A DNA stretch of 64,000 nt from NCBI GenBank assembly GCA_951812955.1, contig OX638340.1, positions 224,001 to 288,000 on the forward strand, read 5' to 3'. Below the pieces are notes generated by a model. That model was given only the letters and a program-made list of their open reading frames with translations, had not been told where the DNA came from and did no database searches. A program made the translations under genes and the position numbers. Each line of letters starts with the position of its first letter. Within the stretch, counting starts at the first letter, position 1. This DNA comes from an uncultured Gemmatimonadota bacterium. Lineage in GTDB: Bacteria > JAAXHH01. Shown piece by piece: positions 7,041 to 54,611 of the stretch.

Positions 7041-7090
7041 CCGATTCATCGTTCATGAGGGTGAGGACGACGGCATAGAGGGTCAAGGCG

Positions 7091-10049: not shown

Positions 10050-10053
10050 TTCC

Positions 10054-14359: not shown

Positions 14360-14377
14360 CGGTAAAAGGAGTTTCGC

Positions 14378-15598: not shown

Positions 15599-15666
15599 CA
15601 CACACCATGCGCTATCGTACGGATTCGGCGGTTTGCTAACTCAAACCCCACAGAAGGAGGCAGGAA

Positions 15667-19749: not shown

Positions 19750-20573
19750 GCGTCGAACGCTATATTGATTTACACGCCCACAGCGACTGTTCGGATGGCG
19801 TCGATACCCCCGAAGAGCTCGTTGCCAAGGCCCGCGCCGCCGGTTTGCACGCACTGGCGATCACTGACCACGACGCGGTGGACGGCGTTGAGCGGGCGCG
19901 TCGCGTTTCTCCCGGGGACCTGGAGATCGTGTCCGGCGTGGAACTCAGTGCGAGGGAAGGCGCTTCCGACGTGCATGTGCTGGGTTATTGCTTCGATCCG
20001 GCCAACCCGGAGTTGCTTGCTTATCTGGAAACCTTCAGGTCAAACCGGTTGAGCCGGGCGGAAGGAATCGTACAGAAGCTCAATGACCTGGGCGTGACGC
20101 TCGAACTGGAATCGGTCTTCGCCCACGCGCGGGACGCCAAAGCCAGCATTGGCAGACCGCATATCGCCCGGGCGTTGGTGGAAAGCCGCCAGGTCGGTTC
20201 CATGCAGGACGCCTTTACGAAGTACCTCGGCAATCATGCCCCCGCCTATGTGCCCAAGATGCTGTTCACTGTCGGGAATGCGGTTCAGATCATTCACGAC
20301 GCGGGCGGCGTGGCGGTGCTGGCCCACCCGGGTTCCCTTCGGCGGGACGAGTTGATTCCCGGATTCATCGAATCCGGATTGGACGGCCTGGAGGTCATCC
20401 ACCCGGACCACTCGTCAACGGTCCGTCGTTATTACGGACAACTGGCGTCAAAGAACAGGCTGGTTACAACGGGTGGATCGGACTACCACGGACCGCGGCC
20501 GGACCGATGCGGCCTGGGTGGAATGAAGGTTCCTTATCGACATCTGGCCGACTTGAAACGGATTTCGGACTGA
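19746..20573 (+). CDS. PHP-domain metal-dependent phosphoesterase (TrpH/YciV, RNase AM-like)
   Basis: N-terminal YIDLHAHSDCSDG (the PHP His/Asp metal-binding motif) and a C-terminal GGSDYHG. The ATG overlaps the valS stop (ATGA). The long upstream extension of the ORF call (from 19485) is rejected. Confidence 0.8.
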   Translation: MSVERYIDLHAHSDCSDGVDTPEELVAKARAAGLHALAITDHDAVDGVERARRVSPGDLEIVSGVELSAREGASDVHVLGYCFDPANPELLAYLETFRSNRLSRAEGIVQKLNDLGVTLELESVFAHARDAKASIGRPHIARALVESRQVGSMQDAFTKYLGNHAPAYVPKMLFTVGNAVQIIHDAGGVAVLAHPGSLRRDELIPGFIESGLDGLEVIHPDHSSTVRRYYGQLASKNRLVTTGGSDYHGPRPDRCGLGGMKVPYRHLADLKRISD

Positions 20574-20633
20574 ATCCAGCTGACTTGCCGCGCTTTCGGT
20601 CTAGGGTTTCAGAAGGAATCAAGGAGACGAAAT

Positions 20634-21668
20634 ATGCGTTTTATCCTGCCGGACTTCTTTTCTAATGATATCGGCATCGATCTGGGTACGGCCAATACGC
20701 TCGTATATGTCCGTGGCAGAGGCATTGTGATCAACGAGCCATCCGTGGTGGCCGTCAATACCAAGTCCGGGAAAGTCGTCGCCGTCGGTGCCGAGGCTAA
20801 AGTCATGCTCGGAAGGGAGCCGCCCGATCTCAAGGCGCACCGGCCGTTGCGCGATGGCGTGATTGCCGACTTCGAGTATACGGAAGCGATGATTCGATAC
20901 TTCATCCGCAAGGTCCTCAAGAATTCATTCTTCATTCGGCCACGCGTCGTGGCATGTATTCCCTCGGGAGTGACCGACGTTGAAATGAGGGCGGTCCGGG
21001 ATTCGGCGGAGCGAGCGGGCGCCAAGGAAGTGATGTTGATATCCGAGCCCATGGCGGCCGCTATCGGTTGTTCGTTGCCCGTGGATGAACCGGTGGGCAG
21101 CATGATCATCGATATCGGCGGCGGGACGTCGGAGATCGCCGTGATCTCCCTTGGCGGCATCGTGACGGCAAAGTCGGTACGCATCGGCGGCGATGAAATG
21201 GACGAGGCAATCATCAACCACATGAAGAACGACTGCAACCTTCAGATCGGCTACAATATGGCCGAACAGATCAAGTGGAATCTCGGGTCGGCCTATCCGG
21301 TGTTCGACAAGGAACTGGATATGACGGTAAAGGGGCTCGATCTGATCGACAGGATACCACGTTCTGTAGTTGTCGATTCCCTGGCGATTCGCAGGGTACT
21401 TTCCCAGCCGCTCGACGGGGTGATCATGGCAGTGCGGCAAACCCTGGAATTGACACCGGCGGAACTGGCGGCCGATATTATCGATCGCGGTATCATCATA
21501 AGCGGAGGCGGGTCCCGGCTGCCCGGCCTGGACAGGCAGATCACGAAGGAGACCAAGCTGCCGGTAAGGCTCGATGAGGAGCCTATGACGTCCGTTGTTC
21601 GGGGAGCGGGAAAGATCATAGAGAACTTTGCCGCTTACGAGACTATGCTGAGCGTCCTGAAGGACTAG
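20634..21668 (+). CDS. mreB: rod-shape determining actin homolog MreB
   Basis: Motifs IGIDLGTANTLVYV and DIGGGTSEIAV; 344 aa; followed by mreC and mreD. Confidence 0.95.
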   Translation: MRFILPDFFSNDIGIDLGTANTLVYVRGRGIVINEPSVVAVNTKSGKVVAVGAEAKVMLGREPPDLKAHRPLRDGVIADFEYTEAMIRYFIRKVLKNSFFIRPRVVACIPSGVTDVEMRAVRDSAERAGAKEVMLISEPMAAAIGCSLPVDEPVGSMIIDIGGGTSEIAVISLGGIVTAKSVRIGGDEMDEAIINHMKNDCNLQIGYNMAEQIKWNLGSAYPVFDKELDMTVKGLDLIDRIPRSVVVDSLAIRRVLSQPLDGVIMAVRQTLELTPAELAADIIDRGIIISGGGSRLPGLDRQITKETKLPVRLDEEPMTSVVRGAGKIIENFAAYETMLSVLKD

Positions 21669-30455: not shown

Positions 30456-32114
30456 ATGCGTCCGGTGCGTCCATTGGTTCGCATGATCGCAGGCCTTGCG
30501 ACCCTCGCGATCGTCTCCACGTCCCCCGGCCAAAGCCAGCGGACGAATTCGGTAGGCAAGATCATGCCTCCGGATGCCGCTCCCCTGTCCCGTCAAATCA
30601 TCCGCGTGATGAACATGGAGCCGCGCGGCCTCGATTCCGGCATCCATCCCTACGACGACGAAGGGCTGGTCCTGAGACCCTTCGAAATGCTGATGTGGCG
30701 GGACGAATTCATGCGTCCGATACCGGGCGCGGCCGAACGTTACGAGCGTTCCGAAGATGGACTGACGTGGACGTTCCACCTGCGGCCCGGCGCCCGGTGG
30801 AGCGACGGCCGCCCGGTCACCGCGCACGACTTCGTCTATACGTTCAGGCGCAACATCGATCCTGCGTCGGGAAACATCTACGCGAACTTCTATTACGATT
30901 TCAAGAATGCGCGGGCGATAAACCAGGGTTGGATCGAGGACATCGAACAGCTGGGCGTACGTGCGCTGGACGACCTGACTCTGGTGATCGAGACCGAACA
31001 GCCGACGCCCTACCTACTATACATCATCTCATTTCCGGACACCTTTCCTGCGCCGCGCTGGGCCGTGGAAAAGTATGGGCGCAAATGGACAGAACAGGGC
31101 AACATCGTCACCAACAGCGGCTTCAAGATGGCCGAGTGGGCGCCCGGCAGCCACATCAAATACGTGCCGGATCCCATGTATAACGGTCCCCACAAGCCCT
31201 TTCTGGAACAGGTCGTCCAGTTGTTCCGCGAGGCCGCGGTGGCCAACATACTGCCCTATGAGAATGACGAGGTGGACATGGAAGCCGTCGATCTCGCGGA
31301 GCTCCACCGCATAGAAAACGACCCCCGCCTGGGGAAGGAGATCGTCCGTTCGCCGAGTTACCAGACCTGGTACTTTATCTTCCGAACCCGGGAACCGCCC
31401 TTTGATGACGTCCGGGTCCGGGAAGCTTTCACCCGGGCCATCGACCGCGAGTCGATCTGCCGCGTTATTCTCCAGGGTGCTGGCATCCCGGCTTACTCGA
31501 TGATTCCGCCTGGTTTCGACGCCTACGCGGGGCCGGAATACAAGCTGTATCAGGGTTATGATCCGGGACGGGCCCGGCAGCTCATGGCAGAGGCCGGCTA
31601 CCCGAGGGGGCGGGGGTTCCCAACCGTAGAAACCTGGCTCAGGGCGCCCAATCCCATCACCCGCCGTATCGCCGAGGCGATTCAGGGGATGTTGCGAACA
31701 GATCTCGGGGTGAATATCACTTTCCGCAGCAGCGATATGGGTTCCTACATGAGCGCACTCTTCGACTGGCAGATACCCCTCGGTTTCATTGCCTGGGGAG
31801 CGGATTATCTCGACCCGAGGAACATGCTGGACATGACCTGGCATTCGCGGCCGCGCGGGGCGCAGCGGCAGGATTGGACCCATCCGGCCTTCGACGATCT
31901 CGTGGACCGGGCGATCGCGGAGCCCGATCCCGCCCGGCGCACGGAGATGTACCGGCAGGCCGAACGGATCCTCGTATCCGACTACGGCGGCGCCTTCATC
32001 TACCATCCGATCGGTTACGGACTCCGAAAACCCTGGGTGAAGGGATATGCCACGCGTCCCGACGGCACGGTAGGCAGCATGGTGTGGGACAAGGTTTATA
32101 TCGGTGAACACTGA
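30456..32114 (+). CDS. ABC-transporter family-5 (OppA/DppA-type) substrate-binding protein, orphan copy 1
   Basis: Signal peptide (MRPVRPLVRMIAGLATLAIVSTSPG); SBP_bac_5-like sequence; start ATG 30456 is preceded by GGAAGG. The longer ORF call from 30354 overlaps the tRNA and is rejected. Confidence 0.75.
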   Translation: MRPVRPLVRMIAGLATLAIVSTSPGQSQRTNSVGKIMPPDAAPLSRQIIRVMNMEPRGLDSGIHPYDDEGLVLRPFEMLMWRDEFMRPIPGAAERYERSEDGLTWTFHLRPGARWSDGRPVTAHDFVYTFRRNIDPASGNIYANFYYDFKNARAINQGWIEDIEQLGVRALDDLTLVIETEQPTPYLLYIISFPDTFPAPRWAVEKYGRKWTEQGNIVTNSGFKMAEWAPGSHIKYVPDPMYNGPHKPFLEQVVQLFREAAVANILPYENDEVDMEAVDLAELHRIENDPRLGKEIVRSPSYQTWYFIFRTREPPFDDVRVREAFTRAIDRESICRVILQGAGIPAYSMIPPGFDAYAGPEYKLYQGYDPGRARQLMAEAGYPRGRGFPTVETWLRAPNPITRRIAEAIQGMLRTDLGVNITFRSSDMGSYMSALFDWQIPLGFIAWGADYLDPRNMLDMTWHSRPRGAQRQDWTHPAFDDLVDRAIAEPDPARRTEMYRQAERILVSDYGGAFIYHPIGYGLRKPWVKGYATRPDGTVGSMVWDKVYIGEH

Positions 32115-32133
32115 CCGAAGAGAGGGCGGGGAC

Positions 32134-33432
32134 ATGGCCAGCGATCTCACTTCCGCGCCGGCGAATCAGCGTATCAACATGAGTTGCGGGCAGACGCCCC
32201 TCTCACCTGCCTGCCTCGCGGCCATCGGGGAGCAGCTCGTGGAACCGGTCTATTATGCTCATTACCCCGAGGTCGAAAAAGAAACCTGTCTCCTGCTCAA
32301 GCGGTTGATGCATACCAAAAACGGTCCCATGCTCATGCCGGGATCCGCCGTTTACGGCCTCGAAGCGGCCATGCTAAGCACCGTCGAGTCCGGTGACCAT
32401 GTGCTGACAGTCCAGACCGGCGTCTTCGGCCGGCTGCTGACGGAATTGGCCCGGTTCGCGGGCGGTAATACGACTGAGATCGCCCTCGAGGAAGGACAGG
32501 CTGTCGACCCGGAAACGATCCGTGGATATCTGCTCGACGACCCGGAAATCAGGCAGGTTGCACTGGTTCACTGCGAGACCACGACGGGCACCCTGAATCC
32601 CATCGAGGCAATCGGGCGAATGCTGAAGATGGAGTTTCCCCACGTGATCTACATGGTAGACTGCGTGTCGTCCTTCGGAGGGATCGAAGTGCGTGTCGAC
32701 GACTGGGGCATCGATCTGATGGTCACCACGACGCAGAAGTGCCTGAACGCGCCGCAGGGCCTGGCGTTAGTCGTAGCCAGTGAAAAGGCCTGGGACAAGA
32801 TCGAAAACCTACGTAGCGCGCCGCGCGCCATGTGCCTCGATCTCCACTCCTGGCGCCGCTACGGCATGGACGGAGGCGCCGCGCTGGGGTACGACACGTT
32901 CGACAGGGCGGGCGTTCCGCGTGCGCAAAGACCACATCCACGGGACTGGCCCGTTCACGGCCCCCATCCGTCCTACACCCTGGTCGTGGGACTGCACGCG
33001 TCGCTGAAGGCCATCATGGACGAGGGGCCGAAACGCGTCTACCGCCGCCAGTACGTCGCGTCCAGGGCGGTGCACGCGGCGTTGAGCGCCATGGGTCTCA
33101 GCATCGTAGCCGCGACAGAGAAGTCGGCCGCGCCTGTGGCGACGCGTATCGCGCAGCCCGCATCGCCGGACCAGCTCGACATGACCGAATTGCACCGGAT
33201 CCTCTTCGAAGATCACGGCATCGCGATCAGCAGCCTTGCCCGTATAGGGACCATGGGCTTTATGGCCGAACCCGGGCCGGTGCTTCGCACCATGTCTGCG
33301 TTGGAGCATACCCTGAACACATTGGGATGGGATGTGGAAGTAGGCACGGGCGTAACGGCGGCCAGGGAGGTATTCGAGCGCTCGGAGGTTTTTTACGGCC
33401 GGGCAGTCGGAAGCCAGGACGTATCCCCATGA
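32134..33432 (+). CDS. class-V (AGXT/serine-pyruvate type) PLP-dependent aminotransferase. Start is 32134 or 32179.
   Basis: PLP-lysine context TTQKCLNAPQG, a small-domain motif DxH...YLDL-like (MCLDLHSW), and overall AGXT-family N-terminus (TPLSP..L.A...........E). Confidence 0.6.
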   Translation: MASDLTSAPANQRINMSCGQTPLSPACLAAIGEQLVEPVYYAHYPEVEKETCLLLKRLMHTKNGPMLMPGSAVYGLEAAMLSTVESGDHVLTVQTGVFGRLLTELARFAGGNTTEIALEEGQAVDPETIRGYLLDDPEIRQVALVHCETTTGTLNPIEAIGRMLKMEFPHVIYMVDCVSSFGGIEVRVDDWGIDLMVTTTQKCLNAPQGLALVVASEKAWDKIENLRSAPRAMCLDLHSWRRYGMDGGAALGYDTFDRAGVPRAQRPHPRDWPVHGPHPSYTLVVGLHASLKAIMDEGPKRVYRRQYVASRAVHAALSAMGLSIVAATEKSAAPVATRIAQPASPDQLDMTELHRILFEDHGIAISSLARIGTMGFMAEPGPVLRTMSALEHTLNTLGWDVEVGTGVTAAREVFERSEVFYGRAVGSQDVSP

Positions 33433-33437
33433 CCGCG

Positions 33438-33460
33438 CTCCGACAGGCCTGCTGTCGGAG
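33438..33460. terminator. perfect 9-bp stem / 5-nt loop hairpin (ctccgacag-gcctg-ctgtcggag) between convergent genes
   Basis: Read from the sequence. It lies between the aminotransferase stop (33432) and the minus-strand SBP stop (33481). No U-tract, so it may act as a bidirectional or Rho-assisted terminator. Confidence 0.4.
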
Positions 33461-33480
33461 TCCTGGCTCCATCCCCGTCG

Positions 33481-35250
33481 CTACTGATCGTCCTCAGGAC
33501 CGCTGGATCCGAACAGCCACTGCCACATATTCATGCTTCGGTCCTCAGCTGCACCGTCCTTCACGACGTCCTCGGTGACGTACAGCGTTGTAGACAGGTT
33601 CAGATGCTTGTCGACGCGTAACGCGAAACCGCCCAGGTCGTTACGCTCCAGCGCCTCGGTCCGCAGGTAGGGCTTCCACAGTTCGTTATGCTGACTGTGC
33701 CACAGGAACACGCCGGCCACGTCTTCGACCAATACGCGTTCTGCCTCGCGGTACAGCGCCATGCGACGGGACGGATCTCCAATCAGGTGATTGGCGATCT
33801 CCATGATGGATTCGAAACGTTCGTTGTACCAGGCATGGCGGCCCGTCGAAAGCCAGATACCAAGTAGATTGCTGGGATCCAGGTAGTCGTATCCATAGGG
33901 GATCATGGCGAAGGCGATGTTGCCTTCGTACATGGATTCCATGAAGAGTTTGGCCTCGGTGTTCTGCACGCCGATGTCGATGTTCAGATTCTGCTTGAGC
34001 ATAGCCTGTACCGCCTGGGGAGCCTGCCCCCCTTGCAGGTTGGTCCCCCTGATCCACATAATGGTCGGCGGAAACCCCTTGCCGTTCGGATAGCCGGCTT
34101 CCGCAAGCCGTTGACGTGCCAGGACAGGGTCGTATCGCTGTATGGGGGCGAGTTTCCCGGGATTCGCCGCGGGGAAACCTTCGGGCAACATCGACGTTGC
34201 GGGTACGGCAACCCCCCGAAGAGCGGAGTCGACCATCGCGTCGTTGTCTATGGCATGGCTGAAGGCCTGCCGCACCCGCAGGTCGTTGAATGGCGGCTTG
34301 AAGGTGTCCATCATCAGGTAGGTGGTACCGAAGGCCATGTAGGTGTCTAACTGGTCCCTTAGCCGGGGATCCGCCCTGACGCGGTTGATTTCCGCCTGGT
34401 TGGACAGCACGACGTGGTCCACGTCCCCGGTTTCGTAGGAGGAAAGCATGGGTGGCTGGGCCGCCACGTTGAACAGCCTGTTGACCACCCGCTCAAGATA
34501 GGGTTTGTGGGGCCCCCGGTAGTGGGGATTCGGCTCCAGCACGATGCGGTCAAGCTTCGACCATTCCACCAGCCTGAAGGGTCCGCTTCCCATCAGTGTT
34601 TCCGGCTTTGTAGACCAGCCCGCACCATATTTATCGAAAAGATGAGTGGGCGTCACCCAGCTGAAGGCCAGGATCAGGGGCAGGTAGGGAGTGGGATCTT
34701 CGGTTGTTATTGCCAGGGTGTGATCGTCCAGCGCTTTGACACCCAGGGAGTCGAGAGGCTGCTTGCCGGCAACGACCGCGCCCCAGTTCGTGATCGAACG
34801 GTAGTACCATTCGAGATCAAACCCCGTATTGGGGTCCGCCCACCGCTTGAAGGTGTCTTCGAAGTCATGCGCCGTAAGGGGATGACCGTCGGCGAAGATC
34901 AGGTTGGACTGGAGGTAAAAGGTCCAGGCGAGCCCGTCGTCCGATACAACCCACCGCGTCGCCGCGGCCGGCAGCAGGTTGTAGTTCCGATCCATGCGCA
35001 CAAGCGGTTCGTTGACCAGCGCATAGTCGTGTCCGACCACCTGGTAGTGGGAGGTGGCCATGTCAAGGTAGCGGTTCTCGGCCTTGAAACTGGTGAAGAC
35101 CTGGTACTCGGGCGGGGCCGCGTCGGGAGGAAGTGGTATGCCGATGGAGTTGATGTAGGGAGCGGGCGGGTCCGCGTCCTGCCAGGCCAATGCGGCCGTG
35201 CAGGCAATGCACGTCGCGGAGAGGAGCGCGACTATGAACCGGACTCTCAC
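33481..35250 (-). CDS. ABC-transporter family-5 substrate-binding protein, orphan copy 2
   Basis: Signal or lipoprotein-like N-terminus (MRVRFIVALLSATCIAC). Paralogous to copies 1 and 3; for example PLTAHDFEDTFKRW in this copy compares with PVTAHDFVYTFRRN in copy 1. Confidence 0.75.
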   Translation of the reverse strand: MRVRFIVALLSATCIACTAALAWQDADPPAPYINSIGIPLPPDAAPPEYQVFTSFKAENRYLDMATSHYQVVGHDYALVNEPLVRMDRNYNLLPAAATRWVVSDDGLAWTFYLQSNLIFADGHPLTAHDFEDTFKRWADPNTGFDLEWYYRSITNWGAVVAGKQPLDSLGVKALDDHTLAITTEDPTPYLPLILAFSWVTPTHLFDKYGAGWSTKPETLMGSGPFRLVEWSKLDRIVLEPNPHYRGPHKPYLERVVNRLFNVAAQPPMLSSYETGDVDHVVLSNQAEINRVRADPRLRDQLDTYMAFGTTYLMMDTFKPPFNDLRVRQAFSHAIDNDAMVDSALRGVAVPATSMLPEGFPAANPGKLAPIQRYDPVLARQRLAEAGYPNGKGFPPTIMWIRGTNLQGGQAPQAVQAMLKQNLNIDIGVQNTEAKLFMESMYEGNIAFAMIPYGYDYLDPSNLLGIWLSTGRHAWYNERFESIMEIANHLIGDPSRRMALYREAERVLVEDVAGVFLWHSQHNELWKPYLRTEALERNDLGGFALRVDKHLNLSTTLYVTEDVVKDGAAEDRSMNMWQWLFGSSGPEDDQ

Positions 35251-35285: not shown

Positions 35286-35642
35286 TTACTCCAGGTACAG
35301 GATCACCTTGCCCGCTTCAATCTCCACCCGGTAGGTCTTGACCCGCATGCGGGGATCGTAGAGCGCCTGGCCGGTGGCGAGGTCGAACTCCCACTGGTGC
35401 CACGCGCACTTCAGGACCTGCTTCTCGTGGTGATCGACCGAGTATACTTCATCGGCCGTGACATAGGGTCTCAGTCGGCCGAGGCAGAGCGGTCCGCCCT
35501 TGTGTGGACAACGGTTCCTCAGGGCGTAGTACCGGCCGTCGACGTTGAACACGCCGATCCCGCCGCGCCCGCCCGCGGGGACGATCCGCCGCTCTCCGGG
35601 GGGCAGGTCATCCACGGCGGCGACCTCGTATCGCTCGCTCAT
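35286..35642 (-). CDS. Rieske [2Fe-2S] ferredoxin-like protein
   Basis: 118 aa with the Rieske ligands CPHKGGPL...CAWHQWEF (CxH...CxxH). Its start overlaps the upstream amidohydrolase stop (ATGA). Confidence 0.8.
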   Translation of the reverse strand: MSERYEVAAVDDLPPGERRIVPAGGRGGIGVFNVDGRYYALRNRCPHKGGPLCLGRLRPYVTADEVYSVDHHEKQVLKCAWHQWEFDLATGQALYDPRMRVKTYRVEIEAGKVILYLE

Positions 35643-36748
35643 CTGGTGGGGCTTCCCTGTTCGTCCAGGCCGTATAGATCCCGCGCGGTTTCCACGAATA
35701 CCTTTCGCTTCAGTCCCGAGTCAATCCCGGGCAGCACCGAATCGGGTGATTCCCAGTCCCAGTGAGGATAGTCGCTGGCGTAAACGAGGATCTCGTCCGC
35801 GTGAAGCCAGTCCAGGAAAGTACTGAGATCCCGGCGGGTCGGCGGCTGTTCCATGGGCTGGCATCCAAACCGGATGTGGCCGCGTATGTATTCACTGGGC
35901 AGGCGCTTGACCCAGGGCGTGTAGTCGCGTACCGCCTTCCAGTCCGCGTCCATATGCCACATCAGGCCCGGTACCCAGAAGGTGTCGTGTTCAATGAAAA
36001 GGAATTTGAGATCGGGGAATTTCTCGAAGGTCCCTTCGCAGATCAGGCTAACGACGTGGGCCATGGCGATCTGGGGACGGGCCATGCGCATTTCCAGGTA
36101 GTATGAAGGGTACCCGGCCGCCGTGGGGGCGTTGGCTATCCCGGCGCCCTCGACACCGAAGTGCACGCACATGGGAAGACGGCACGCCTGCGCGGCCTCG
36201 TAGATCGGGTCGTAGAACCGGTTGCCGAAGGGCATCCGTCCGCCGGCGGGCATGATGACCTGCAATACCTCGGGACGGTCGCCGATGCGCCGGATTTCCG
36301 CGGCCGCCTGCTGCGGATCCGTCGGCGCCACCGCCACCGACGCGCGGAAACGGCCGTCCGCCTTGATCCAGGTCTCCAGGGTCCAGTCGTTGAAAGCCCG
36401 GCACATGGCGGCGCCATAATCCGCGTTCGGGTGCACCGCCGCGCCGTACACGGTCACGCCCGTCAGTAGAGCCACGTCAATGCCGTACTCGTCGAGATGA
36501 TGCTCACGCGCCAGGTCGATGTTGCTGCTGGGGTGGGTCTCGGTGTGTTCCCATAATTCGGCGCGGCATCCGCCTTTCGGGAGGTTGGTGTACCCGACGC
36601 CGGGCATCATGGACCCGAAGTCCTTCACGTATTCCACGTAATGATCGGGGAGATAGGGGAACAGGTCTTCGATTTCCACCACACCGTGGTGCAGGTCGCA
36701 GTCGATGAGATTTAACTTCGAAGCGGACTTTCGTGCGACCTCGGCCAT
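35639..36748 (-). CDS. amidohydrolase-2 family (PF04909-type TIM-barrel metal-dependent hydrolase/decarboxylase)
   Basis: N-terminal LIDCDLHHG metal-binding motif, overall Amidohydro_2 pattern, and a conserved C-terminal Asp region (SDYPHWD). ATG at 36748 is preceded by GGAAGG; the TTG at 36820 is rejected. Confidence 0.7.
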   Translation of the reverse strand: MAEVARKSASKLNLIDCDLHHGVVEIEDLFPYLPDHYVEYVKDFGSMMPGVGYTNLPKGGCRAELWEHTETHPSSNIDLAREHHLDEYGIDVALLTGVTVYGAAVHPNADYGAAMCRAFNDWTLETWIKADGRFRASVAVAPTDPQQAAAEIRRIGDRPEVLQVIMPAGGRMPFGNRFYDPIYEAAQACRLPMCVHFGVEGAGIANAPTAAGYPSYYLEMRMARPQIAMAHVVSLICEGTFEKFPDLKFLFIEHDTFWVPGLMWHMDADWKAVRDYTPWVKRLPSEYIRGHIRFGCQPMEQPPTRRDLSTFLDWLHADEILVYASDYPHWDWESPDSVLPGIDSGLKRKVFVETARDLYGLDEQGSPTR

Positions 36749-37068
36749 GGTCTGAGAAAACCTTCCAGAAGCTCCGCGTAACAGGTGGGAATGGTGTTTC
36801 TGCCATAAACACGCAATCAAGCGGTCCTGTCAAGCTGATTCAGTGATTCCGCGCCTCGGGCCGATGCCGGGGTTGCCAGATACGCGGAAGACGCTCAATT
36901 TAAAGCATGGCCCGGTATCGCGGCGAGCCTGCGGGACCGGCTCTGCCGGCGAACGAGGCGACCCGGTGAAATTTGTACTTTTCATTTATCGGCCAGACAC
37001 TAAATTTCCATACCGTTTCGTACTTGCGCCTTAAATCGACCGCGTAGCCAAATCTGCATTGGACGCCT

Positions 37069-43594: not shown

Positions 43595-45019
43595 TCACGG
43601 ATTTTCTGTCTTCGCCGCCGCATTCGAGCGCCGGCGCAGGTACAGGTAGGCAGGGATGCCGAGGGCAATCAGGGCGAGGCCCGATATGGACTCAACGGGG
43701 GTTTCGAAGAGCATGTTGGCGAGAATGCCGGCGGAACCGGCGATGAACAGCAGGGGAACGGCCGGGTAGCCCCAGGCTTTGTAGGGCCTGGGCAGGTCGG
43801 GCTGTTTCCTGCGCAGGGTGAATACCGCGGCCGCCCCGGCGATCCACAGCATGAGATTGGCGAAGGTGACAAAGGTAATCAGGTCTTCGAACGTACCGCT
43901 GAGGGTGAGCACGCATGCCCATGCGGCCTGAAAAATCACTGCCTGACCCGGTGTGCGGTACCTCGGATGTACCGTGCCCGCCCGTTTGAAGAACAGCCCG
44001 TCCCGCGCCATGGCGAAATAGACACGGGGTCCCACCAGGATGCTGGCGTTCAGCGCGCCGACGATGGACACGATGACGGCAGCCGAGATCAGTACGGCGC
44101 CCGTTTCTCCGAAGAGGGCGTTGGCAGCCACTTCACCGACCCGGACGATCCCGGCCATTTCCCCTACCGGCATGGCCTTCAGGTAGATGTAGTTCACCAG
44201 CAGATAGACCACGGTGACGCTCGCGGTGCCCACGACGAGAGCCCGGGGCAGGTTTCGCGCCGGGTCCCTGACCTCTCCCGCTACGAAGGTAACTTCCTCC
44301 CATCCGGCGAAGGCCCAGGCGACGGCGATAAGGGCGACGCCGAAAGCGACCACCAGTTGCCCGAAGTCAATATCCTGCGGGTTGATCCTGAAGTCGATGG
44401 GCTGTGTGGACCCGCTCCAGAGTCCGAACAGGATGAACAAACCGAGCGCGGCGACCTTGATCACCGAGGACACGTTGGTGATGTGCTTGCTGAAGGTGAC
44501 GCCCCGGTAATTTACGACCGTAAGCAGGACGACCAGGGCCAGTGCCGTGACGTGGCCGGCGGAAAGGGAATACTGAAACGTCCAGCCTGGAAGGGCGATT
44601 TCGGTTTCGAAGAATACGTTGGCCATCCCGAAGGAGGGGATGAAGTACCCGGCGTATTCTGCGAATCCCACGGCGAGCGCGGCGATGATTCCGGTCAGGT
44701 ACATGGTGAAGGACACCCAGCCGAAGAGGAATCCGCAGAACGGACCGTAAGCTTCCCGGAGATATACGTACTGGCCGCCGGCCCTGGGCATGGCGGCTCC
44801 GAGCTCGGAGTAGGCCAGCGCGCCGGCGAGGGCGTGCAGTCCGCCGAACAGCCAGGCAAGGAGTATGAGCGAGGCCGAGGGTATGCCCCGGGCCATCAGG
44901 CCGGTGGTGAGGAAAATCCCCGAACCGATCACGATGCCGATAATGATCATCGTGGTGTCGAAAAGACCGAGCTGGCGGACCAGGCCAGTCTTTTCTTTTT
45001 GATCGCTCGGAATTGCCAT
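43595..45019 (-). CDS. APC-superfamily amino acid/polyamine permease
   Basis: 12-TM protein with the APC N-terminal signature (TTMIIIGIVIGSGIF) and an overall amino-acid permease pattern. Confidence 0.8.
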   Translation of the reverse strand: MAIPSDQKEKTGLVRQLGLFDTTMIIIGIVIGSGIFLTTGLMARGIPSASLILLAWLFGGLHALAGALAYSELGAAMPRAGGQYVYLREAYGPFCGFLFGWVSFTMYLTGIIAALAVGFAEYAGYFIPSFGMANVFFETEIALPGWTFQYSLSAGHVTALALVVLLTVVNYRGVTFSKHITNVSSVIKVAALGLFILFGLWSGSTQPIDFRINPQDIDFGQLVVAFGVALIAVAWAFAGWEEVTFVAGEVRDPARNLPRALVVGTASVTVVYLLVNYIYLKAMPVGEMAGIVRVGEVAANALFGETGAVLISAAVIVSIVGALNASILVGPRVYFAMARDGLFFKRAGTVHPRYRTPGQAVIFQAAWACVLTLSGTFEDLITFVTFANLMLWIAGAAAVFTLRRKQPDLPRPYKAWGYPAVPLLFIAGSAGILANMLFETPVESISGLALIALGIPAYLYLRRRSNAAAKTENP

Positions 45020-45057
45020 ATATTGAGAATAGGGGACGTTCCGCGGGGTGGCCGCAC

Positions 45058-45969
45058 ATGGATGCGATCACGGCCCAGGCGGGCATATGGAAGTGGAAAG
45101 CGAACCTCCATGTTACGGGGACGGTTCGCCTAAGTCAAGGTGGGATTGCTGCAGGAAGGAAACCTCGATTGAACGATACGGCGCTGGACCTCATCGACTC
45201 GACGACCTACCCCATTCACCGGCCAGGATCGGCCACGTACAGCGCACTTGTCGCAAGGTGCAGGGATGATCTGGCGGACCGAAGCGCCTGCCTGTTGCCC
45301 GGATTCGTCACGGAGGAGGCCAGGGTACGGATGGTGGCCGAGGTGGACCGTGCCGCGCCCAGCGCTTTTCCTTGCCGGAACGCCCATAACGTATACCTCG
45401 AGGAGCACGACGGCGCCTTTCCGCCCGACCACCCCCGGCGAAGGCTCCAGGCAACGGACCTGGACTCGGTCGCCTTCGATCAGATGCGTCCCACAGACGG
45501 TCTGCACCAGTTGTATTCCTGGGATCCGCTCCTTTCCTTCATAGCCGACGTCCTCAACAAGGAACACTATTACAGGATGGCCGACCCCTTTGCCGCGCTG
45601 ACGGTTAACGTCATGCGAGAGGGACAGAACCACGGCTGGCATTTCGACGAGTCCGAGGCTACGACTACCCTGATGGTACAGGCGCCCGAAGAAGGCGGCG
45701 CATTTGAGTACGCACCGAACGTCCGTCCGGAGGAAGGCGGGTCATACGATACCGTGGAACGGGTGCTGCGCGGCAGCTATCCGGACGTACGTACACTCGC
45801 CGTGAAGCCCGGTACGCTGATCCTCTTCGTCGGCTACCATTCCATGCACCAGGTGACACCGGTCAAGGGTCCGGTTACCCGGTATGTCGCCACGCTCTGC
45901 TATAAGGACCGGCCCAATGTCTGCAACAGCCCCGAGGTACAGAAGCTGTTCTACGGTCGGACGGCATGA
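45058..45969 (+). CDS. putative Fe(II)/2-oxoglutarate-dependent oxygenase-like protein (cupin/DSBH fold), family unassigned
   Basis: Candidate facial triad HxD...H (HGWHFDESE ... VGYHSMHQV) with a downstream Arg (VTRYVATL). No closer family could be assigned by eye. Confidence 0.4.
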   Translation: MDAITAQAGIWKWKANLHVTGTVRLSQGGIAAGRKPRLNDTALDLIDSTTYPIHRPGSATYSALVARCRDDLADRSACLLPGFVTEEARVRMVAEVDRAAPSAFPCRNAHNVYLEEHDGAFPPDHPRRRLQATDLDSVAFDQMRPTDGLHQLYSWDPLLSFIADVLNKEHYYRMADPFAALTVNVMREGQNHGWHFDESEATTTLMVQAPEEGGAFEYAPNVRPEEGGSYDTVERVLRGSYPDVRTLAVKPGTLILFVGYHSMHQVTPVKGPVTRYVATLCYKDRPNVCNSPEVQKLFYGRTA

Positions 45970-46032
45970 CGAAGGGAGTTTACGGGAAGAAGGTCGTTTT
46001 TGGAGATCGCTCAAGGACCAGGAGGTGGACCA

Positions 46033-47307
46033 TTGCACGCAGTGATCATTGGGAACGGCGTAACAGGGGTAACAGCCGCCACGCGGCTCCGGCAGCTTCA
46101 GCCCGACTGGAAGGTCACGCTGGTATCGGGTGAATCGGCCTTCCACTATTCCCGCCCCGCACTCATGTACATCTTCATGGGGCACATGACCTACGAGGCG
46201 ACGAAACCCTTCGAGGACAGTTTCTGGCGAGACCAGCGGCTGGACCTGGTCCGAGACTGGGTCACCGCCATCGATATCGACGACAGGCAACTGGTTCTAC
46301 ACCGGAACGGACGCCTGCCCTACGACCGTCTGCTGATCGCCACCGGCGCCAAATCGAACAAGTTCGGATGGCCGGGCCAGGACCTCGATGGCGTCCAGGG
46401 CCTGTACAACCTGAAAGACCTGCATCAACTGTATAAAAACGCCGAACGGGCCAGTCACGCGGTCATCGTCGGCGGCGGGCTGATCGGCATCGAACTCGCC
46501 GAGATGCTGCATTCGAGGCATATCCACGTCACGTTTCTCATACGCGAGCCCTCCTACTGGCGCAACATCCTGCCCATGGAAGAATCGGGCATGCTGAACC
46601 GGCTGATCGAGGAGCAGGGCATCGGCCTGATCAAGGAGACCAACCTGAAGGAAATCGTGGACGACGGCACAGGAAAGGTCGAAGCGGTCATTACCGAGTT
46701 CGACGACCGGATCGACTGCCAGCTGGTCGGTCTGACGCCGGGTGTTTCGCCCAACACGGACCTGGTCAAGTCGACGCCCATCGAAACGGGGCGGGGCGTC
46801 CTGGTCGACAACGCGTTCCGTACGAACATACCCGACATCTACGCCGCCGGGGACTGTGCGGAAATCGTCAGCCGGAACGGGGGACGCAACCTGATCCAGC
46901 AGGTCTGGTACACGGGCAAGAAGCAGGGCAAGGTCGCCGGTGAGGTGCTGGCCGGACAGGATACGGAGTACGACCCTGGGATCTGGTACAATTCGGCCAA
47001 GTTCTTCGACCTGGAGTACCAGACCTACGGCATGATTCTGAATACGCCCCAGCCCGGAGAGCGCCACCTTTTCTGGGAACATCCATCCCATCGCCACGCC
47101 GTCCGCATCGTCGGCGTCGACGGGTGCATCAAGGCATTCAATTTCATGGGGATCAGGGCCCGCCACGAAGTATGTGAGCGGTGGATTGCCGAGCGGCGTA
47201 CCGTGGAGTACGTCCTGGACCACCTGGAAGAAGCCAACTTCGATCCGGAGTTTTTCGTCCGCCACGAGTCGGAGATCGTTCGCTCATTAAAGGAGCAACT
47301 CGCATGA
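46033..47307 (+). CDS. FAD/NAD(P)-binding pyridine nucleotide-disulfide oxidoreductase family reductase (ferredoxin/rubredoxin-reductase-like, with no redox-active CxxxxC pair)
   Basis: Two Rossmann motifs (AVIIGNGVTGVTAA and AVIVGGGLIGIELAE) and a C-terminal dimerisation-like domain. The TTG at 46033 is preceded by AGGAGGTG at a 5-nt spacing. Confidence 0.75.
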   Translation: MHAVIIGNGVTGVTAATRLRQLQPDWKVTLVSGESAFHYSRPALMYIFMGHMTYEATKPFEDSFWRDQRLDLVRDWVTAIDIDDRQLVLHRNGRLPYDRLLIATGAKSNKFGWPGQDLDGVQGLYNLKDLHQLYKNAERASHAVIVGGGLIGIELAEMLHSRHIHVTFLIREPSYWRNILPMEESGMLNRLIEEQGIGLIKETNLKEIVDDGTGKVEAVITEFDDRIDCQLVGLTPGVSPNTDLVKSTPIETGRGVLVDNAFRTNIPDIYAAGDCAEIVSRNGGRNLIQQVWYTGKKQGKVAGEVLAGQDTEYDPGIWYNSAKFFDLEYQTYGMILNTPQPGERHLFWEHPSHRHAVRIVGVDGCIKAFNFMGIRARHEVCERWIAERRTVEYVLDHLEEANFDPEFFVRHESEIVRSLKEQLA

Positions 47308-48758
47308 GCACACCGCCCGCTGCACCGACGTTGATCGATCCGGAATCCATTTCGTACTTCTACGACGAGGAGGCCGAAGGGTTCGGCGAGCCCGAGTCCG
47401 CGGCGGAGGCGCCCAGGAACCCGGGCATGATGGTCTCCGCCGGCGTGATCGGGCTGGGTTTCCTCGCGCTCGTCGTATCCCTGCTCGGTATGCCGCTCTC
47501 AGGCGCCTGGACGCCCTTCCTGCTGTCCTTCGGCCTGCTGTCTGCCGGAACCATCGGTTACGTCTGGTTCACGTACAGGGACACGGTGCCCGGTATCAAG
47601 CACGACGGCATCATGTTCGGAAACACGACACACCGCGGCGCCATCGCCTGGGCGCTGGGCATCGCGCTCACCGGGTTCTACGTCGTACTGTACTGGTGGC
47701 CCGAATACCTGTCGCGTGCCATCGCGCTCGTTGAGCCGCTGTCGCAGGTCCTGGCGGGGCAGCCGGCGAACCAGTGGTTTCTATACGGGTTTCTCTACAC
47801 GATGGCCGTGGTGCTCTTCGGATTCCGCATGTTCATGCGTTACCGCCACAACCGTTATCACATCATCCGAACGATTTCGGTCATGTTCTTTCAACTGGTC
47901 CTGGCCTTCGTCCTTCCCCAGTTCCTCCGCGCGCTGAACGAACCGGAGTTCTACTTCAGCTACTTCTGGCCCCTGAAGTACGACTACCTGTTCCCCGGTA
48001 CCGTGGATTACCTGGTCAACAGCCCGGGCGCCCTGGGTTCGTTCATGGTGTTCTGGGGGGTGGCCTGCACGTTTATCGCCACGCCCGTGCTGACCTATTT
48101 CTACGGCAAGCGGTGGTACTGTTCCTGGGTATGCGGCTGCGGCGGGCTCGCCGAAACCCTCGGCGACCCCTGGCGGCACCTGACGCCCAAATCGACCGTA
48201 TCGTGGAAAATCGAACGGGCGATCATTTACGCGGTGCTCCTGCTCATCATCGCGACGACGGCCGTGCTCTGGGTGAGCAGCACGTCCGAAGGCGCGCTGA
48301 GCGCCATTTCCGCTCCGTTGAAACAGTGGTACGGTTTCTACATCGGCGCGGTCTTCGCCGGGGTCATCGGAGTAGGGTTCTATCCCATACTCGGCAATCG
48401 GGTCTGGTGCCGCTTCGGGTGCCCGATGGCCGCGGTGCTGGGCATCATCCAGCGCTTCTTCTCCCGGTTCCGAATCACAACCAACGGCGGGCAGTGCATG
48501 TCCTGCGGTAACTGCACGACCTATTGCGAAATGGGCATCGACGTGCGGGCCTATGCGGAGCGCGGCGAGAATATCGTCCGGTCTTCCTGCGTGGGATGCG
48601 GGGTCTGTTCGGCCGTGTGTCCCCGGGGCGTGCTCAAGCTCGAGAACGGCATGTCCCACGGAGACCGCTACCCGGGGTCCGACAAACCGCTGAGCGCTTT
48701 CTCCGAGGCCGTCAGCAAGGGCGCCAGGGTCTACGGCGACCGCGATGGCTACGTATAG
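47304..48758 (+). CDS. NapH/MauN-like membrane-bound polyferredoxin (multi-TM, CxxxCP motifs plus two C-terminal 4Fe-4S clusters)
   Basis: About 8 predicted TM helices. Cytoplasmic motifs are CSWVCGCGG and CRFGCP (NapH-type Cx3CP). C-terminal CMSCGNCTTYCEM and CVGCGVCSAVCP are 4Fe-4S ferredoxin signatures. Its ATG overlaps the stop of the upstream reductase (ATGA) and is preceded by AAGGAG. Confidence 0.75.
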   Translation: MSTPPAAPTLIDPESISYFYDEEAEGFGEPESAAEAPRNPGMMVSAGVIGLGFLALVVSLLGMPLSGAWTPFLLSFGLLSAGTIGYVWFTYRDTVPGIKHDGIMFGNTTHRGAIAWALGIALTGFYVVLYWWPEYLSRAIALVEPLSQVLAGQPANQWFLYGFLYTMAVVLFGFRMFMRYRHNRYHIIRTISVMFFQLVLAFVLPQFLRALNEPEFYFSYFWPLKYDYLFPGTVDYLVNSPGALGSFMVFWGVACTFIATPVLTYFYGKRWYCSWVCGCGGLAETLGDPWRHLTPKSTVSWKIERAIIYAVLLLIIATTAVLWVSSTSEGALSAISAPLKQWYGFYIGAVFAGVIGVGFYPILGNRVWCRFGCPMAAVLGIIQRFFSRFRITTNGGQCMSCGNCTTYCEMGIDVRAYAERGENIVRSSCVGCGVCSAVCPRGVLKLENGMSHGDRYPGSDKPLSAFSEAVSKGARVYGDRDGYV

Positions 48759-51667: not shown

Positions 51668-53311
51668 TTATTTCCGGCTTTTGTATAGCCGTGAATACAT
51701 GAGGCCGCCTACGGTGCCGTCGGGGTACCTGGTATAACCCTTCAGGTTCGATTTGCGAAGCTGCATCGTGAGGGGATGGAACACGAAGGCGGCGGCGTAG
51801 TCCCCCACGAGAATCTCCTCCGCCTGCCTGTAGAGACTCGTGCGCCTTACCGGGTCCAGTTCCGCACCGGCGCTTTCCACCAGCGCATCGAATTCGGAAT
51901 CCGCCCAGTCGTGCCGCCCCGCGCCTTTCGGCTGGGAGTGCCAGGTCATGTCGAGCATGTTGCGGGGGTCCATGTAATCGGCGACGAACCGCAGAAAGCC
52001 GAAGTCCATTTCCCAGTTGTACAGTTTGCTCATGTAGGCCGTCCGGTCCAGGGTCCGGATGGAGACTTTAACCCCGAGGTGCTCCAGCAGCATGCTCTGA
52101 ATAGCGACGCCCGCCATCTGCATGGAAGGCGTCGGCGCCCGAATCCACATTTCCTGCCTGGGAAACCCTCTTCCGTTCGGATAGCCGGCCTCCCGCATCA
52201 GCGTTTTCGCCCGCTCGGGATCGAAAGCCTGGTACGGTTTCATGGCATCGCCGTTGTACTCCTTGAAGTCCGGGGGCATCATGGAATAGGCCGGTGCAGC
52301 AGCCCCTCTCAGGACCACCTGGCTGATAGCCTCCCTATTCAGCGCACGTGCAAAGGCCTCCCTTACTCGTATGTCATTGAAGGGCGGATCGGACGTGTTG
52401 AAGAACAGGTACCAGGTCGTTCTTCCGGGAGATCTGACGAGTTCCCGGCTGAGCACCGGGTGCCGTTCGATTCGATCCAGGTCGTTGATGTCTACCGTTT
52501 CCACGTCCACTTCGTTGTTTTCGTAGGCCAGGACGGTCTGCGCCGCCGCGTAGCGGAAGGGATGAATGACCTTCTCCAGCAAAGGTTTGTGGGGACCGTT
52601 GTACATGGGATCGGGCACGAAGGTCATGTGGCTGCCGGTCGCCCATTCGGCCATCCGGAAGCCGGAATTCGACACGATGTTTTCGACTTCGGTCCATCTC
52701 CGGCCATGTTTCTCGACGGCCCATCGCGGCGTGGGGTACGCCAGGCCGAAGGACACGACGTGGGGAAAATGGGGCGCGCCGCGCTCCAGAAGCACCTGCA
52801 GCGTTAGATCGTCCACGGCCCTGACGCCCAGTTGAGCCAGATCCTCGATATCTCCGAGACTGATTTCCTTCGCGTTCATGATGTCATAATAGAAGAAGGC
52901 GTAGGGATTGGCGTTGGCGGGATCGAGCATGCGTCTGAAAGCGTAGACGAAATCGTGGGCCGTAACGGGCCTGCCATCGTTCCAACGCGCGCCGGGACGC
53001 AGATGGAACGTCCATTCCCGGGCGTCGTCGGAGACGTCGTAACCGGTGGCGGCGGCCGGGATGGGCTGCCACAACTCGTCTCTGATGAGCAGGGTCTCGA
53101 AGGGCAGCAGCGTGGACTCGCCGTCGTACAGGTTGATCTGGATGTCGAGGCTGCGCGGTTCGGGACTCATCACGCGGAAAACCTGCTGGTCCGGCGGCGC
53201 CGCGTCGGCGGGCAAGGCGACACCGACCGAATTGGAGTGTTGACCATGGATAAGACAAGCCGGCGACAGAGTAGCCGCGGCCAGAAGCAAGACGGAGCGT
53301 ATCCTGAACAT
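51668..53311 (-). CDS. ABC-transporter family-5 substrate-binding protein, orphan copy 3
   Basis: Signal or lipoprotein-like N-terminus (MFRIRSVLLLAAATLSPAC). About 60% identical over long stretches to copy 1 (for example WTFHLRPGARWNDGRPVTAHDFVYAFRR versus WTFHLRPGARWSDGRPVTAHDFVYTFRR). Confidence 0.8.
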   Translation of the reverse strand: MFRIRSVLLLAAATLSPACLIHGQHSNSVGVALPADAAPPDQQVFRVMSPEPRSLDIQINLYDGESTLLPFETLLIRDELWQPIPAAATGYDVSDDAREWTFHLRPGARWNDGRPVTAHDFVYAFRRMLDPANANPYAFFYYDIMNAKEISLGDIEDLAQLGVRAVDDLTLQVLLERGAPHFPHVVSFGLAYPTPRWAVEKHGRRWTEVENIVSNSGFRMAEWATGSHMTFVPDPMYNGPHKPLLEKVIHPFRYAAAQTVLAYENNEVDVETVDINDLDRIERHPVLSRELVRSPGRTTWYLFFNTSDPPFNDIRVREAFARALNREAISQVVLRGAAAPAYSMMPPDFKEYNGDAMKPYQAFDPERAKTLMREAGYPNGRGFPRQEMWIRAPTPSMQMAGVAIQSMLLEHLGVKVSIRTLDRTAYMSKLYNWEMDFGFLRFVADYMDPRNMLDMTWHSQPKGAGRHDWADSEFDALVESAGAELDPVRRTSLYRQAEEILVGDYAAAFVFHPLTMQLRKSNLKGYTRYPDGTVGGLMYSRLYKSRK

Positions 53312-53459
53312 ACTGTTTCCCGGGTTGGTTGGAACTGGACCGTTTGTACCGTTGATGCGCGGTCAATATAGACCCGCCGGCGAAGGAAGGTCAAGAGATA
53401 GTCCATCGTCTTGTATTTGCTTGACATCCTCCATCCCGGTGACTACTTGATTACACTGT

Positions 53460-54611
53460 TTGTCAGTCACTATCCATGCGCTGTTCCCGGTCATGCCCAT
53501 AATGTCCGAAAACACCTTTACCTTCGACCGCGTCGTCCGGATCGCAATCGCCGCGGCAGTGATCTGGCTGCTGATTGCCTTTATCGCCTACGTGAGCGAC
53601 ATTCTCATCCCTTTCGCGGTCGCGCTGCTGCTCGCCTACCTGATTAACCCACTGACTTCATGGCTGCAGCGAAAGCTGCCGTTCAAACAGCGGATCGTCT
53701 CCGTACTGCTGAGCCTGACGGTTATCCTGGGCGGCGTGGTCCTTTTTCTGGCGATTCTGATCCCCATGGTCGTTTCCGAGGTCGTGCATATGCAAAATCT
53801 GCTGACCGGAGTGGTGAACACGGATCAGTGGCAGGCGGCTCTGCAGGACTACGTGCCCGAGGAAATCCGGGTCTACATCACGGATCTCGTCGCGTTTGAA
53901 GAACTCGTCCACCTGCTGAACTTCGAAAACATCAGGGTTTTCTTCCAGCAGATCCTGCCAGGCATCTGGGGTGTGTTCTCGGGTACAGTCAGCTTCGTGA
54001 TCGGGTTGGCGGTCGTGATCATCATATTGCTCTACCTGGTCTTCATTCTGCTGGATTATGATGAGATCACCGAGGGATGGAAGGAATTGATCCCCGATCG
54101 GTACAGGCAGGTGGTGCTGGACGTTGTATGCGACTTCACTACGGCCATGAGAGTGTATTTCCGTGCCCAGGCCCTCATAGCCTTTATCGTGGGACTGCTC
54201 TTCGCGCTGGGATTCTGGTTGATCGGGCTGCCGATGGGTATTCTGCTGGGCCTTTTTATCGGCCTGCTCAACATGGTGCCCTACCTGCAGGTCGTGGGGC
54301 TCATTCCGTCCGTGCTGTTTGCAGTTGTGGCGGCGTTGGGCGCGGGCGAGAGTATCTGGATCATGCTGGGTCTCGTGCTTGCCGTGTTCGCCGTCGTGCA
54401 GATAATCCAGGACGCCATACTGGTTCCCCGGATCATGGGAAAGGTGACCGGGTTCAATCCGGCCGTCATCCTGCTCTCCCTGTCCGTCTGGGGCAAGCTG
54501 CTGGGCATTCTGGGACTGCTGATCGCGCTTCCGGCGACGTTCCTGATCCATTCGTACTACAAGAGATACCTGAAAGGCGCTCTTACGGAGGAGAAGCCGG
54601 TTCAGCCTTGA
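53460..54611 (+). CDS. AI-2E family (PerM/UPF0118) transporter. Start may be 53460 or 53502.
   Basis: 8-TM protein with an AI-2E architecture and a conserved C-terminal region (GLLNMVPYLQ...). Confidence 0.75.
   Translation: MSVTIHALFPVMPIMSENTFTFDRVVRIAIAAAVIWLLIAFIAYVSDILIPFAVALLLAYLINPLTSWLQRKLPFKQRIVSVLLSLTVILGGVVLFLAILIPMVVSEVVHMQNLLTGVVNTDQWQAALQDYVPEEIRVYITDLVAFEELVHLLNFENIRVFFQQILPGIWGVFSGTVSFVIGLAVVIIILLYLVFILLDYDEITEGWKELIPDRYRQVVLDVVCDFTTAMRVYFRAQALIAFIVGLLFALGFWLIGLPMGILLGLFIGLLNMVPYLQVVGLIPSVLFAVVAALGAGESIWIMLGLVLAVFAVVQIIQDAILVPRIMGKVTGFNPAVILLSLSVWGKLLGILGLLIALPATFLIHSYYKRYLKGALTEEKPVQP

Follow-up and report, generated by a model that had tools for sequence, protein, structure and literature searches.

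Can a solute-binding protein serve uptake when no transporter is encoded beside it? We address this question for a 64,000-nucleotide stretch (the window) of contig OX638340.1 from an uncultured Gemmatimonadota bacterium, in which a first-pass annotation had pointed to three paralogous family-5 solute-binding proteins (SBPs), here called SBP1, SBP2 and SBP3. We find that these are secreted, intact and conserved receptors of the OppA fold, encoded beside cytoplasmic catabolic enzymes and with no ATP-binding cassette (ABC) transporter genes nearby. They belong to a lineage-specific OppA-like family, with five or more conserved paralogues in each genome, in a clade of uncultured bacteria from the FCB group (Fibrobacteres, Chlorobi, Bacteroidetes). 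By analogy with known systems, we think it rather probable that they are substrate-specific periplasmic receptors which feed a shared ABC translocator encoded at a distance.

Orphan OppA-type receptors are already well known, and the bare observation is ordinary. Here the orphan state is fixed across a whole family, covering about 100 loci in uncultured, symbiont-like bacteria whose genomes each encode five or more paralogues. The main interest of the locus lies in the conserved link of SBP2 with SfbO, a recently described Mn/Fe oxygenase that is itself an orphan enzyme.

Three intact binding proteins of the OppA type

Each of the three genes (Table 1) is an uninterrupted, full-length open reading frame (ORF) whose product matches the whole PF00496 (SBP_bac_5) model of Pfam at 278-283 bits, the cutoff being 32.4. 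A tblastn search of the 64 kb places the copy number of the family in the window at exactly three. Among solved structures, residues 55-534 of SBP1 align with residues 22-501 of OppA (E 1.1e-73; the match to 1b05 spans residues 67-534), covering both lobes and the extra domain, and residues 90-529 of SBP2 align with OppA 54-495 (E 1.5e-54). The top structural relatives of SBP1 and SBP2 are Salmonella and E. coli OppA, followed by Borrelia OppAIV (4gl8) and MppA, the structures of the latter matching SBP1 at E ~1e-52. With PF00496 E-values near 1e-83 and full-length alignment to OppA, the initial identification of three paralogous family-5 binding proteins at these positions stands, and all three copies are assigned by sequence to the OppA/DppA-type (family-5, cluster C) solute-binding proteins. 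The best NCBIfam match of each copy is likewise OppA, at 200-246 bits. Because these scores fall far below the equivalog cutoff of 947 in all three copies, and because the carboxylate-binding arginines of OppA are replaced (see below), SBP1-3 are, by sequence, not conventional OppA proteins.

Pairwise identity is 57% for SBP1/SBP3, 37% for SBP1/SBP2 and 36% for SBP2/SBP3, which makes SBP2 the outlier; it also carries a C-terminal extension of ~40 amino acids (aa) relative to the other two. The long identical blocks described at first as shared (WTFHLRPGARW.DGRPVTAHDFVY.FRR, DPMYNGPHKP and DY[LM]DPRNMLDMTWHS) are indeed common to copies 1 and 3 but are missing from copy 2. The ATG of SBP1 at 30456 agrees with the starts of its orthologues. 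SBP3 is apparently monocistronic. Promoter and terminator scans of the window were at chance level and uninformative save for one promoter-like site 5' of SBP3, itself weak evidence, as the site count is no higher than expected by chance.

Table 1. Positions of the features discussed; numbers refer to the window unless a related locus (L) is named.
Feature	Position	Strand	Description
SBP1	30456..32114	+	552 aa; orthogroup A; OppA-like family-5 binding protein; PF00496 E 1.8e-83
SBP2	33481..35250	-	589 aa; orthogroup B; divergent family-5 binding protein; PF00496 E 1.6e-82
SBP3	51668..53311	-	547 aa; orthogroup C; OppA-like family-5; PF00496 E 5.9e-84
Sigma-70-like promoter match	53365..53394	-	TTGACC-18-TATATT; 54 bp 5' of SBP3 start codon; consensus scan 10/12
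SfbO-like amidohydrolase-related dinuclear (Mn/Fe) oxygenase	35639..36820	-	PDB 8SM6 E 1.4e-167, ~72% identity; PF04909
Small Rieske [2Fe-2S] ferredoxin	35286..35642	-	118 aa; SfbR position; PF00355 E 2e-15
Class-V aminotransferase	32104..33432	+	PF00266; directly 3' of SBP1, same strand
AI-2E family (PerM-like) membrane transporter	53460..54611	+	PF01594 E 2.4e-47; divergent from SBP3
DUF6785 + DUF6784 membrane protein	57618-59588	-	656 aa; ~13 transmembrane (TM) helices
Solitary MalK-type ATPase	L075 19818-20918; L045 about 20290-20950	+ (L075)	near orthogroup E loci
Division/cell-wall cluster	3061-16839	+	mraZ-rsmH-ftsL-ftsI-murE-(murF-like)-ftsW-murC-murB-ftsQ-ftsA-ftsZ
Redox run	45013-48758	+	HalD-like 2-oxoglutarate (2OG) oxygenase; Pyr_redox_2 flavoprotein; 8-TM protein with C-terminal 4Fe-4S dicluster
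PhyH (Fe/2OG dioxygenase)-HEAT fusion	56123-57523; L085 8381-9721; L086 6088-7428	+ (window)

Export signals

As had been noted from the start, all three copies have Sec-type leaders that are conserved in their orthologues; as read from the sequence, the basic N-terminus leads into a hydrophobic core, and an AxA-like site comes last. Just past the signal peptide, every family member carries the motif NS[VI]G..[LM]P.DAAP (in the window at 30456-30560, 35150-35250 and 53210-53311), which takes the form NSVGK.MPPDAAP in SBP1. PGQ-type repeats, variable in number, lie between leader and motif in the SBP1 orthologues.

The further proposal that two of the copies look like lipoproteins found no support for SBP1, where neither the protein nor its orthologues have a leader cysteine, or for SBP3, where only 3/13 orthologues have one and the remainder end in SHA↓Q-type signal-peptidase-I sites. 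It is doubtful for SBP2 as well; a leader cysteine is present in 10/13 orthologues, but it sits inside the hydrophobic core, ahead of a conserved A-L-A↓W site. We read all three as probable signal-peptidase-I substrates and soluble periplasmic proteins, with less certainty for SBP2.

Conservation of the family and its gene contexts

Homologues at 47-98% identity occur in metagenome-assembled genomes (MAGs) labelled Latescibacterota, Gemmatimonadota or Zixibacteria. The nearest locus is that of "Gemmatimonadetes bacterium APA_bin_41" (SBP1 98% identical), and several of the loci are on chromosomes that are closed, 3.7-3.97 Mb in size. The isolate and record names by themselves (APA, IRC1, SB0665, Plut, ROBB21) suggest an origin in sponge and coral metagenomes.

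Clustering of the neighbouring ORFs resolved a minimum of five orthogroups per genome, and the gene order around every one of them is fixed: secG > SBP1 > Aminotran_5 for orthogroup A; Amidohydro_2 > Rieske > SBP2 for B; AI-2E (divergent), SBP3 and DAGK for C; GFO_IDH_MocA > AP_endonuc_2 > Aminotran_3 > SBP for D; and HtpG > SBP > phytase-like > APH/RapZ_C > NTP_transferase for E. Orthogroups A, C, D and E are mutually 57-62% identical, and B is the outlier at 36-39%. SBP3 keeps a fixed position in 17 loci, with the gene for the AI-2E transporter on one side and DAGK/YegS on the other. In orthogroup A, the aminotransferase directly follows the SBP in 17/19 orthologous loci; in the window its longest ORF overlaps the SBP1 stop codon, and its exact start is uncertain. 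The best solved relatives of this enzyme are 2z9u (pyridoxamine-pyruvate), PucG, AGXT-type and 2-aminoethylphosphonate-pyruvate transaminases. The orthogroup D paralogue (L036-L070, e.g. L046 6000-14200) is followed by genes for a cupin and an FA_desaturase-like membrane protein, and we take its neighbours GFO_IDH_MocA, AP_endonuc_2 and Aminotran_3 to resemble the rhizopine (moc) catabolic genes.

Against their orthologues, the ratio of nonsynonymous to synonymous substitution (dN/dS) is 0.07-0.10 for SBP1, 0.17-0.19 for SBP2 and 0.08-0.11 for SBP3; by this measure all three genes are under purifying selection.

Absence of ABC transporter genes from the window and related loci

We chose 52 likely genes of the window by codon-position GC content and scanned them all against Pfam; none matched either BPD_transp_1 or ABC_tran. 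The window also gave no match in six frames when OppB, OppC, OppD and OppF of E. coli (NC_000913) served as tblastn queries, nor when the queries were permeases and ATPases of the Dpp type from a Litorilinea (Chloroflexota) locus. The reported lack of permease and ATPase genes was thus confirmed for the window by both approaches. For the relatives, one genome per species was scanned, giving 80 loci with ±10 kb of flank. No OppB/OppC homologue was found in the window and 83 related loci, nor did permease queries from two other phyla match anything in 90 loci (1.7 Mb, ±10 kb). More distant members of the family are likewise orphan, their neighbours being PhyH-HEAT, sulfatase, GH95, Amidohydro_2 or GH172 genes.

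The ABC component that we did encounter is a solitary MalK-type ATPase (ABC_tran, OB_MalK, TOBE_2), encoded between OCD (ornithine cyclodeaminase) and LptD_N genes with no adjoining permease. We rejected it as a component of an Opp system on account of its MalK-type domains and its OCD/LptD_N flanks. Its occurrence in two genomes of the clade suggests that ABC components are scattered there, which indirectly favours a translocator encoded at a distance. Single-cell genomes of Latescibacteria have been reported to encode oligo- and dipeptide ABC transporters, at the level of the phylum (PMC4454575); the literature on PAUC34f/Latescibacteria that we found holds phylum-level statements alone on peptide ABC transporters.

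A conserved operon links SBP2 to an SfbO-like oxygenase

SBP2 is the last gene of an operon in which the oxygenase and Rieske genes overlap by 4 bp and a gap of 35 bp separates the Rieske gene from SBP2. This order is kept in 19/19 orthologous loci. The first-pass annotation had correctly placed SBP2 at the end of an operon with a Rieske gene, but the enzyme that it called an amidohydrolase is a homologue of the SfbO oxygenase, not a hydrolase. SfbO of Litorilinea aerophila (8SM6) is an amidohydrolase-related dinuclear oxygenase that prefers an Mn/Fe cofactor, receives electrons from SfbR, a small Rieske ferredoxin encoded adjacent to it, and hydroxylates the N-alpha C-H of 2-aminoethylsulfonate compounds with release of sulfoacetaldehyde (PMC10811679, PMC13154177). 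Its natural substrate is unknown (PMC10811679). Residues N67, R232, R235 and W341 of the SfbO sulfonate/sulfate pocket are conserved in the window protein, as is W343, the proposed ferredoxin-interface residue; Y280 could not be placed by count. The solved relatives of the window Rieske protein are ferredoxin components of oxygenase systems.

The same enzyme pair recurs beside family-5 importers in other phyla. A Litorilinea MAG has the order sfbO > Rieske > 2 ABC_tran/oligo_HPY > 2 BPD_transp_1 > luciferase-like > SBP_bac_5 > TPP (thiamine pyrophosphate) enzyme, the last being a protein of 590 aa (L092) that we would guess to be a sulfoacetaldehyde acetyltransferase. Additionally, a 7-Mb genome encodes an SBP_bac_5 protein and two permeases 3 kb from sfbO-Rieske, in divergent transcription. 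A third sfbO context lacks an SBP and has sulfatases and a PhyH gene nearby. We considered SBP2 as an orthologue of the SBPs in the Litorilinea and 7-Mb genomes and rejected this, as their identity to SBP2 (25-28%; 25% for Litorilinea) is below that to E. coli OppA. At this level of identity the association of the oxygenase pair with import through a family-5 SBP is recurrent rather than inherited, an analogy and not orthology. With that qualification, the Litorilinea operon shows, as indirect support, that an SfbO substrate is presumably imported via a classical Dpp-type system. Both the operon itself and the placement of the same pair beside family-5 ABC importers elsewhere agree with the initial suggestion of substrate-specific capture for a catabolic pathway.

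The binding pocket

To compare the ligand-binding residues, we built an alignment of E. coli OppA and 97 members of the family. In OppA D419, and in MppA D417, makes a salt bridge with the ligand's alpha-ammonium group (PMC3173086). An aspartate at this position is invariant, occurring in 97/97 family members. The carboxylate-binding positions of OppA are hydrophobic in every member, with R413 replaced by F, M or L, R404 by L or M, and K307 by L. The H371 position holds T, G, M, I or D, depending on the orthogroup. Five positions (E32, H371, W397, C417 and T438) differ among orthogroups and are fixed inside each. At position 397, for instance, orthogroups A to E have M, A, R, R and L in turn. 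A pattern of pocket residues fixed within and variable between orthogroups fits one specificity per paralogue. From the alignment we infer that the ligands are bearers of a protonated amine and not conventional peptides, with a separate specificity for each paralogue.

Receptors that may share a distal translocator

In the reading that we favour, each paralogue would bind its own amine-bearing small molecule or unusual peptide once this has reached the periplasm, and pass it on to an ABC translocator of the Opp/Dpp type. This translocator, made up of two permeases and two ATPases, would be encoded elsewhere and be common to all paralogues. The solute of SBP2 is probably what SfbO acts on in nature, likely a taurine-like compound of the N-substituted 2-aminoethylsulfonate type that comes from the animal host.

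There is precedent for such an arrangement. MppA and YgiS of E. coli are orphan OppA paralogues that work through OppBCDF (PMC3173086), and in Borrelia five OppA proteins serve one translocator (PMC5736914). Like the window proteins, MppA and YgiS are periplasmic family-5 SBPs encoded apart from ABC genes, and they have the OppA fold and the ammonium-anchoring aspartate in common with them. MppA differs in being a close paralogue of an operon-encoded OppA and in keeping Arg402 and Arg411, whereas for the window family no operon-encoded relative was found, both arginine positions are hydrophobic, and there are at least five paralogues, each beside catabolic enzymes. Borrelia burgdorferi OppA1-5 are similar in that they are several OppA paralogues, some apart from permease genes, which are thought to widen the substrate range (PMC5736914, PMC7822543). 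Unlike at the loci of the window clade, where none is seen, B. burgdorferi has an identifiable oppBCDF, and three of its OppA genes lie inside that operon. The Litorilinea SfbO/SfbR neighbourhood resembles the SBP2 operon in that a family-5 SBP comes after an SfbO-type oxygenase and a Rieske ferredoxin; it differs in that a full ABC set (two oligo_HPY ATPases and two permeases) stands between the oxygenase genes and the SBP, while the window keeps the SBP alone. A non-transport role is represented by mycobacterial LpqW, a lipoprotein of the family-5 SBP fold that acts in cell-envelope glycolipid biosynthesis. By description, LpqW too is an orphan family-5 fold with no adjacent transporter genes; compared on the same basis, the window SBPs differ in keeping the ligand-anchoring aspartate of OppA and in having catabolic gene neighbours.

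Several observations weigh against a shared distal translocator. No Opp/Dpp-type permease and no OppD/F-type ATPase was seen in the clade, within the ±10 kb loci to which the scans were limited. None of the ~100 family members examined adjoins a permease, and known orphans are close paralogues of an operon-encoded SBP. The solitary ATPase is of the MalK type, while family-5 systems are expected to use the OppD/F type. SBP2 is only distantly similar to the sfbO-associated SBPs of other phyla. Lastly, because the R404, R413 and K307 positions are hydrophobic, the class of ligand cannot be read from OppA.

The family offers a clean case in which to ask how many receptors one translocator can serve, or whether a family-5 SBP can function without a translocator. 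Since each paralogue is tied to its own catabolic module and has its own pocket residues, the family would map the host-derived amine compounds that are taken up. The ligand of SBP2, or that of the SBP in the Litorilinea operon, would be a direct route to the natural substrate of SfbO. Because taurine serves as a currency between sponges and their symbionts (PMC10356861), the link between SBP2 and SfbO offers an experimental handle on that substrate.

Alternative explanations

The alternative that survives best, which we nevertheless regard as unlikely, is that solute import is not the main task of the SBPs. In the periplasm they would instead sense ligands on behalf of chemoreceptors, kinases or other signalling proteins, or work as chaperones or by sequestration. 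Chemoreceptors and sensor kinases are known to receive input from SBPs, those of the DppA type among them (review PMC8050422), and the conserved orphan state would suit such a role. The chemoreceptor version, raised in the first-pass annotation, gained nothing from the related loci, as no homologue of a methyl-accepting chemotaxis protein (Tar, Tap), CheW or CheR occurs within ±10 kb of the 90 loci (1.7 Mb), and a crude motif scan gave just two kinase-like ORFs, neither of them recurrent. Moreover, the neighbouring catabolic enzymes are cytoplasmic and require their substrate inside the cell, and the orthogroup-specific pocket residues fit nutrient specificity.

We consider it still less likely that the SBPs deliver their solutes, in the manner of tripartite ATP-independent periplasmic (TRAP) or tripartite tricarboxylate (TTT) transporters but with a cluster-C protein as receptor, to a secondary or uncharacterised membrane transporter, for which the AI-2E protein and the 13-TM DUF6785/DUF6784 protein are candidates. 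The AI-2E gene is the sole membrane-protein gene conserved beside any copy; it is divergent from SBP3, lies two genes off in the distant locus L028, and is context rather than a demonstrated partner. As for DUF6785, its distance to SBP3 in the window is 4.3 kb, and in L038 an SBP is two genes away; it is multicopy, and is co-operonic with Peptidase_M32 and, elsewhere, with GH4. The lack of a permease near any of ~100 family members also speaks for a partner of this kind. To our knowledge, however, family-5 SBPs work with ABC translocators or sensors only. In four of the five DUF6785 contexts no SBP occurs within 8 kb. Orthogroups A, B, D and E lack a membrane protein that is conserved next to the SBP, and the sfbO module of other phyla is tied to an ABC system of the classical Dpp type. 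DUF6785/DUF6784 is suggestive in the window and L038 as the membrane partner that is missing; with L090, L091 and L096 having no SBP within 8 kb, we kept it as a low-probability rival only. That the family does without an ABC translocator altogether, its five or more paralogues all feeding a secondary or uncharacterised transporter such as AI-2E or DUF6785/DUF6784, is in our estimate slightly more improbable again. If true, this would add a new, non-ABC class to the uptake systems that depend on an SBP.

A misassembled metagenomic contig, or pseudogenes left after loss of a transporter, might be suspected because the source organism is uncultured and exact-sequence look-ups of SBP1 and SBP3 gave no record, but we give this practically no weight: both conditions, which the first-pass annotation itself had named as fatal to its claim, are excluded by the intact frames, by dN/dS of 0.07-0.19 and by synteny conserved in ~90 loci, with identical gene order in independent assemblies that include the closed 3.7-3.97 Mb chromosomes.

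Other features of the window

The window contains prfA-prmC-proC; the division and cell wall (dcw) cluster, then valS; and mreBCD-PBP2-rodA-lgt-comF-pfk-tpiA-secG. Next come SBP1 and the aminotransferase, convergent with the Amidohydro_2 > Rieske > SBP2 operon. The window also encodes TerC, an aldo-keto reductase, CNNM/CorC, an epimerase, AbgT and an amino-acid permease, as well as a HalD-like 2OG oxygenase, Pyr_redox_2, a membrane 4Fe-4S protein, Mem_trans, SDR and DAGK/YegS. SBP3 and the AI-2E transporter are accompanied by a deaminase, a PhyH-HEAT fusion, DUF6785/6784, a sulfatase and oxoacid:ferredoxin oxidoreductase subunits.

The division/cell-wall cluster at 3061-16839 is without mraY, a third Mur ligase (murD), murG and ddl, which must be encoded elsewhere. 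The redox run at 45013-48758 is kept in L002, and one could guess that its Pyr_redox_2 flavoprotein is the reductase for the Rieske/SfbO system.

The same genomes have multiple copies of the DUF6785/DUF6784 gene; a tandem pair of them in L090 overlaps Peptidase_M32, and the copy in L091 is directly upstream of GH4. Such co-operonic placement with Peptidase_M32 or GH4 suggests an importer, and DUF6785/DUF6784, for which we found no mention in the literature, looks like an uncharacterised importer family. Lastly, the PhyH-HEAT fusion turns up repeatedly next to family-5 SBPs and sulfatases, in non-orthologous arrangements.

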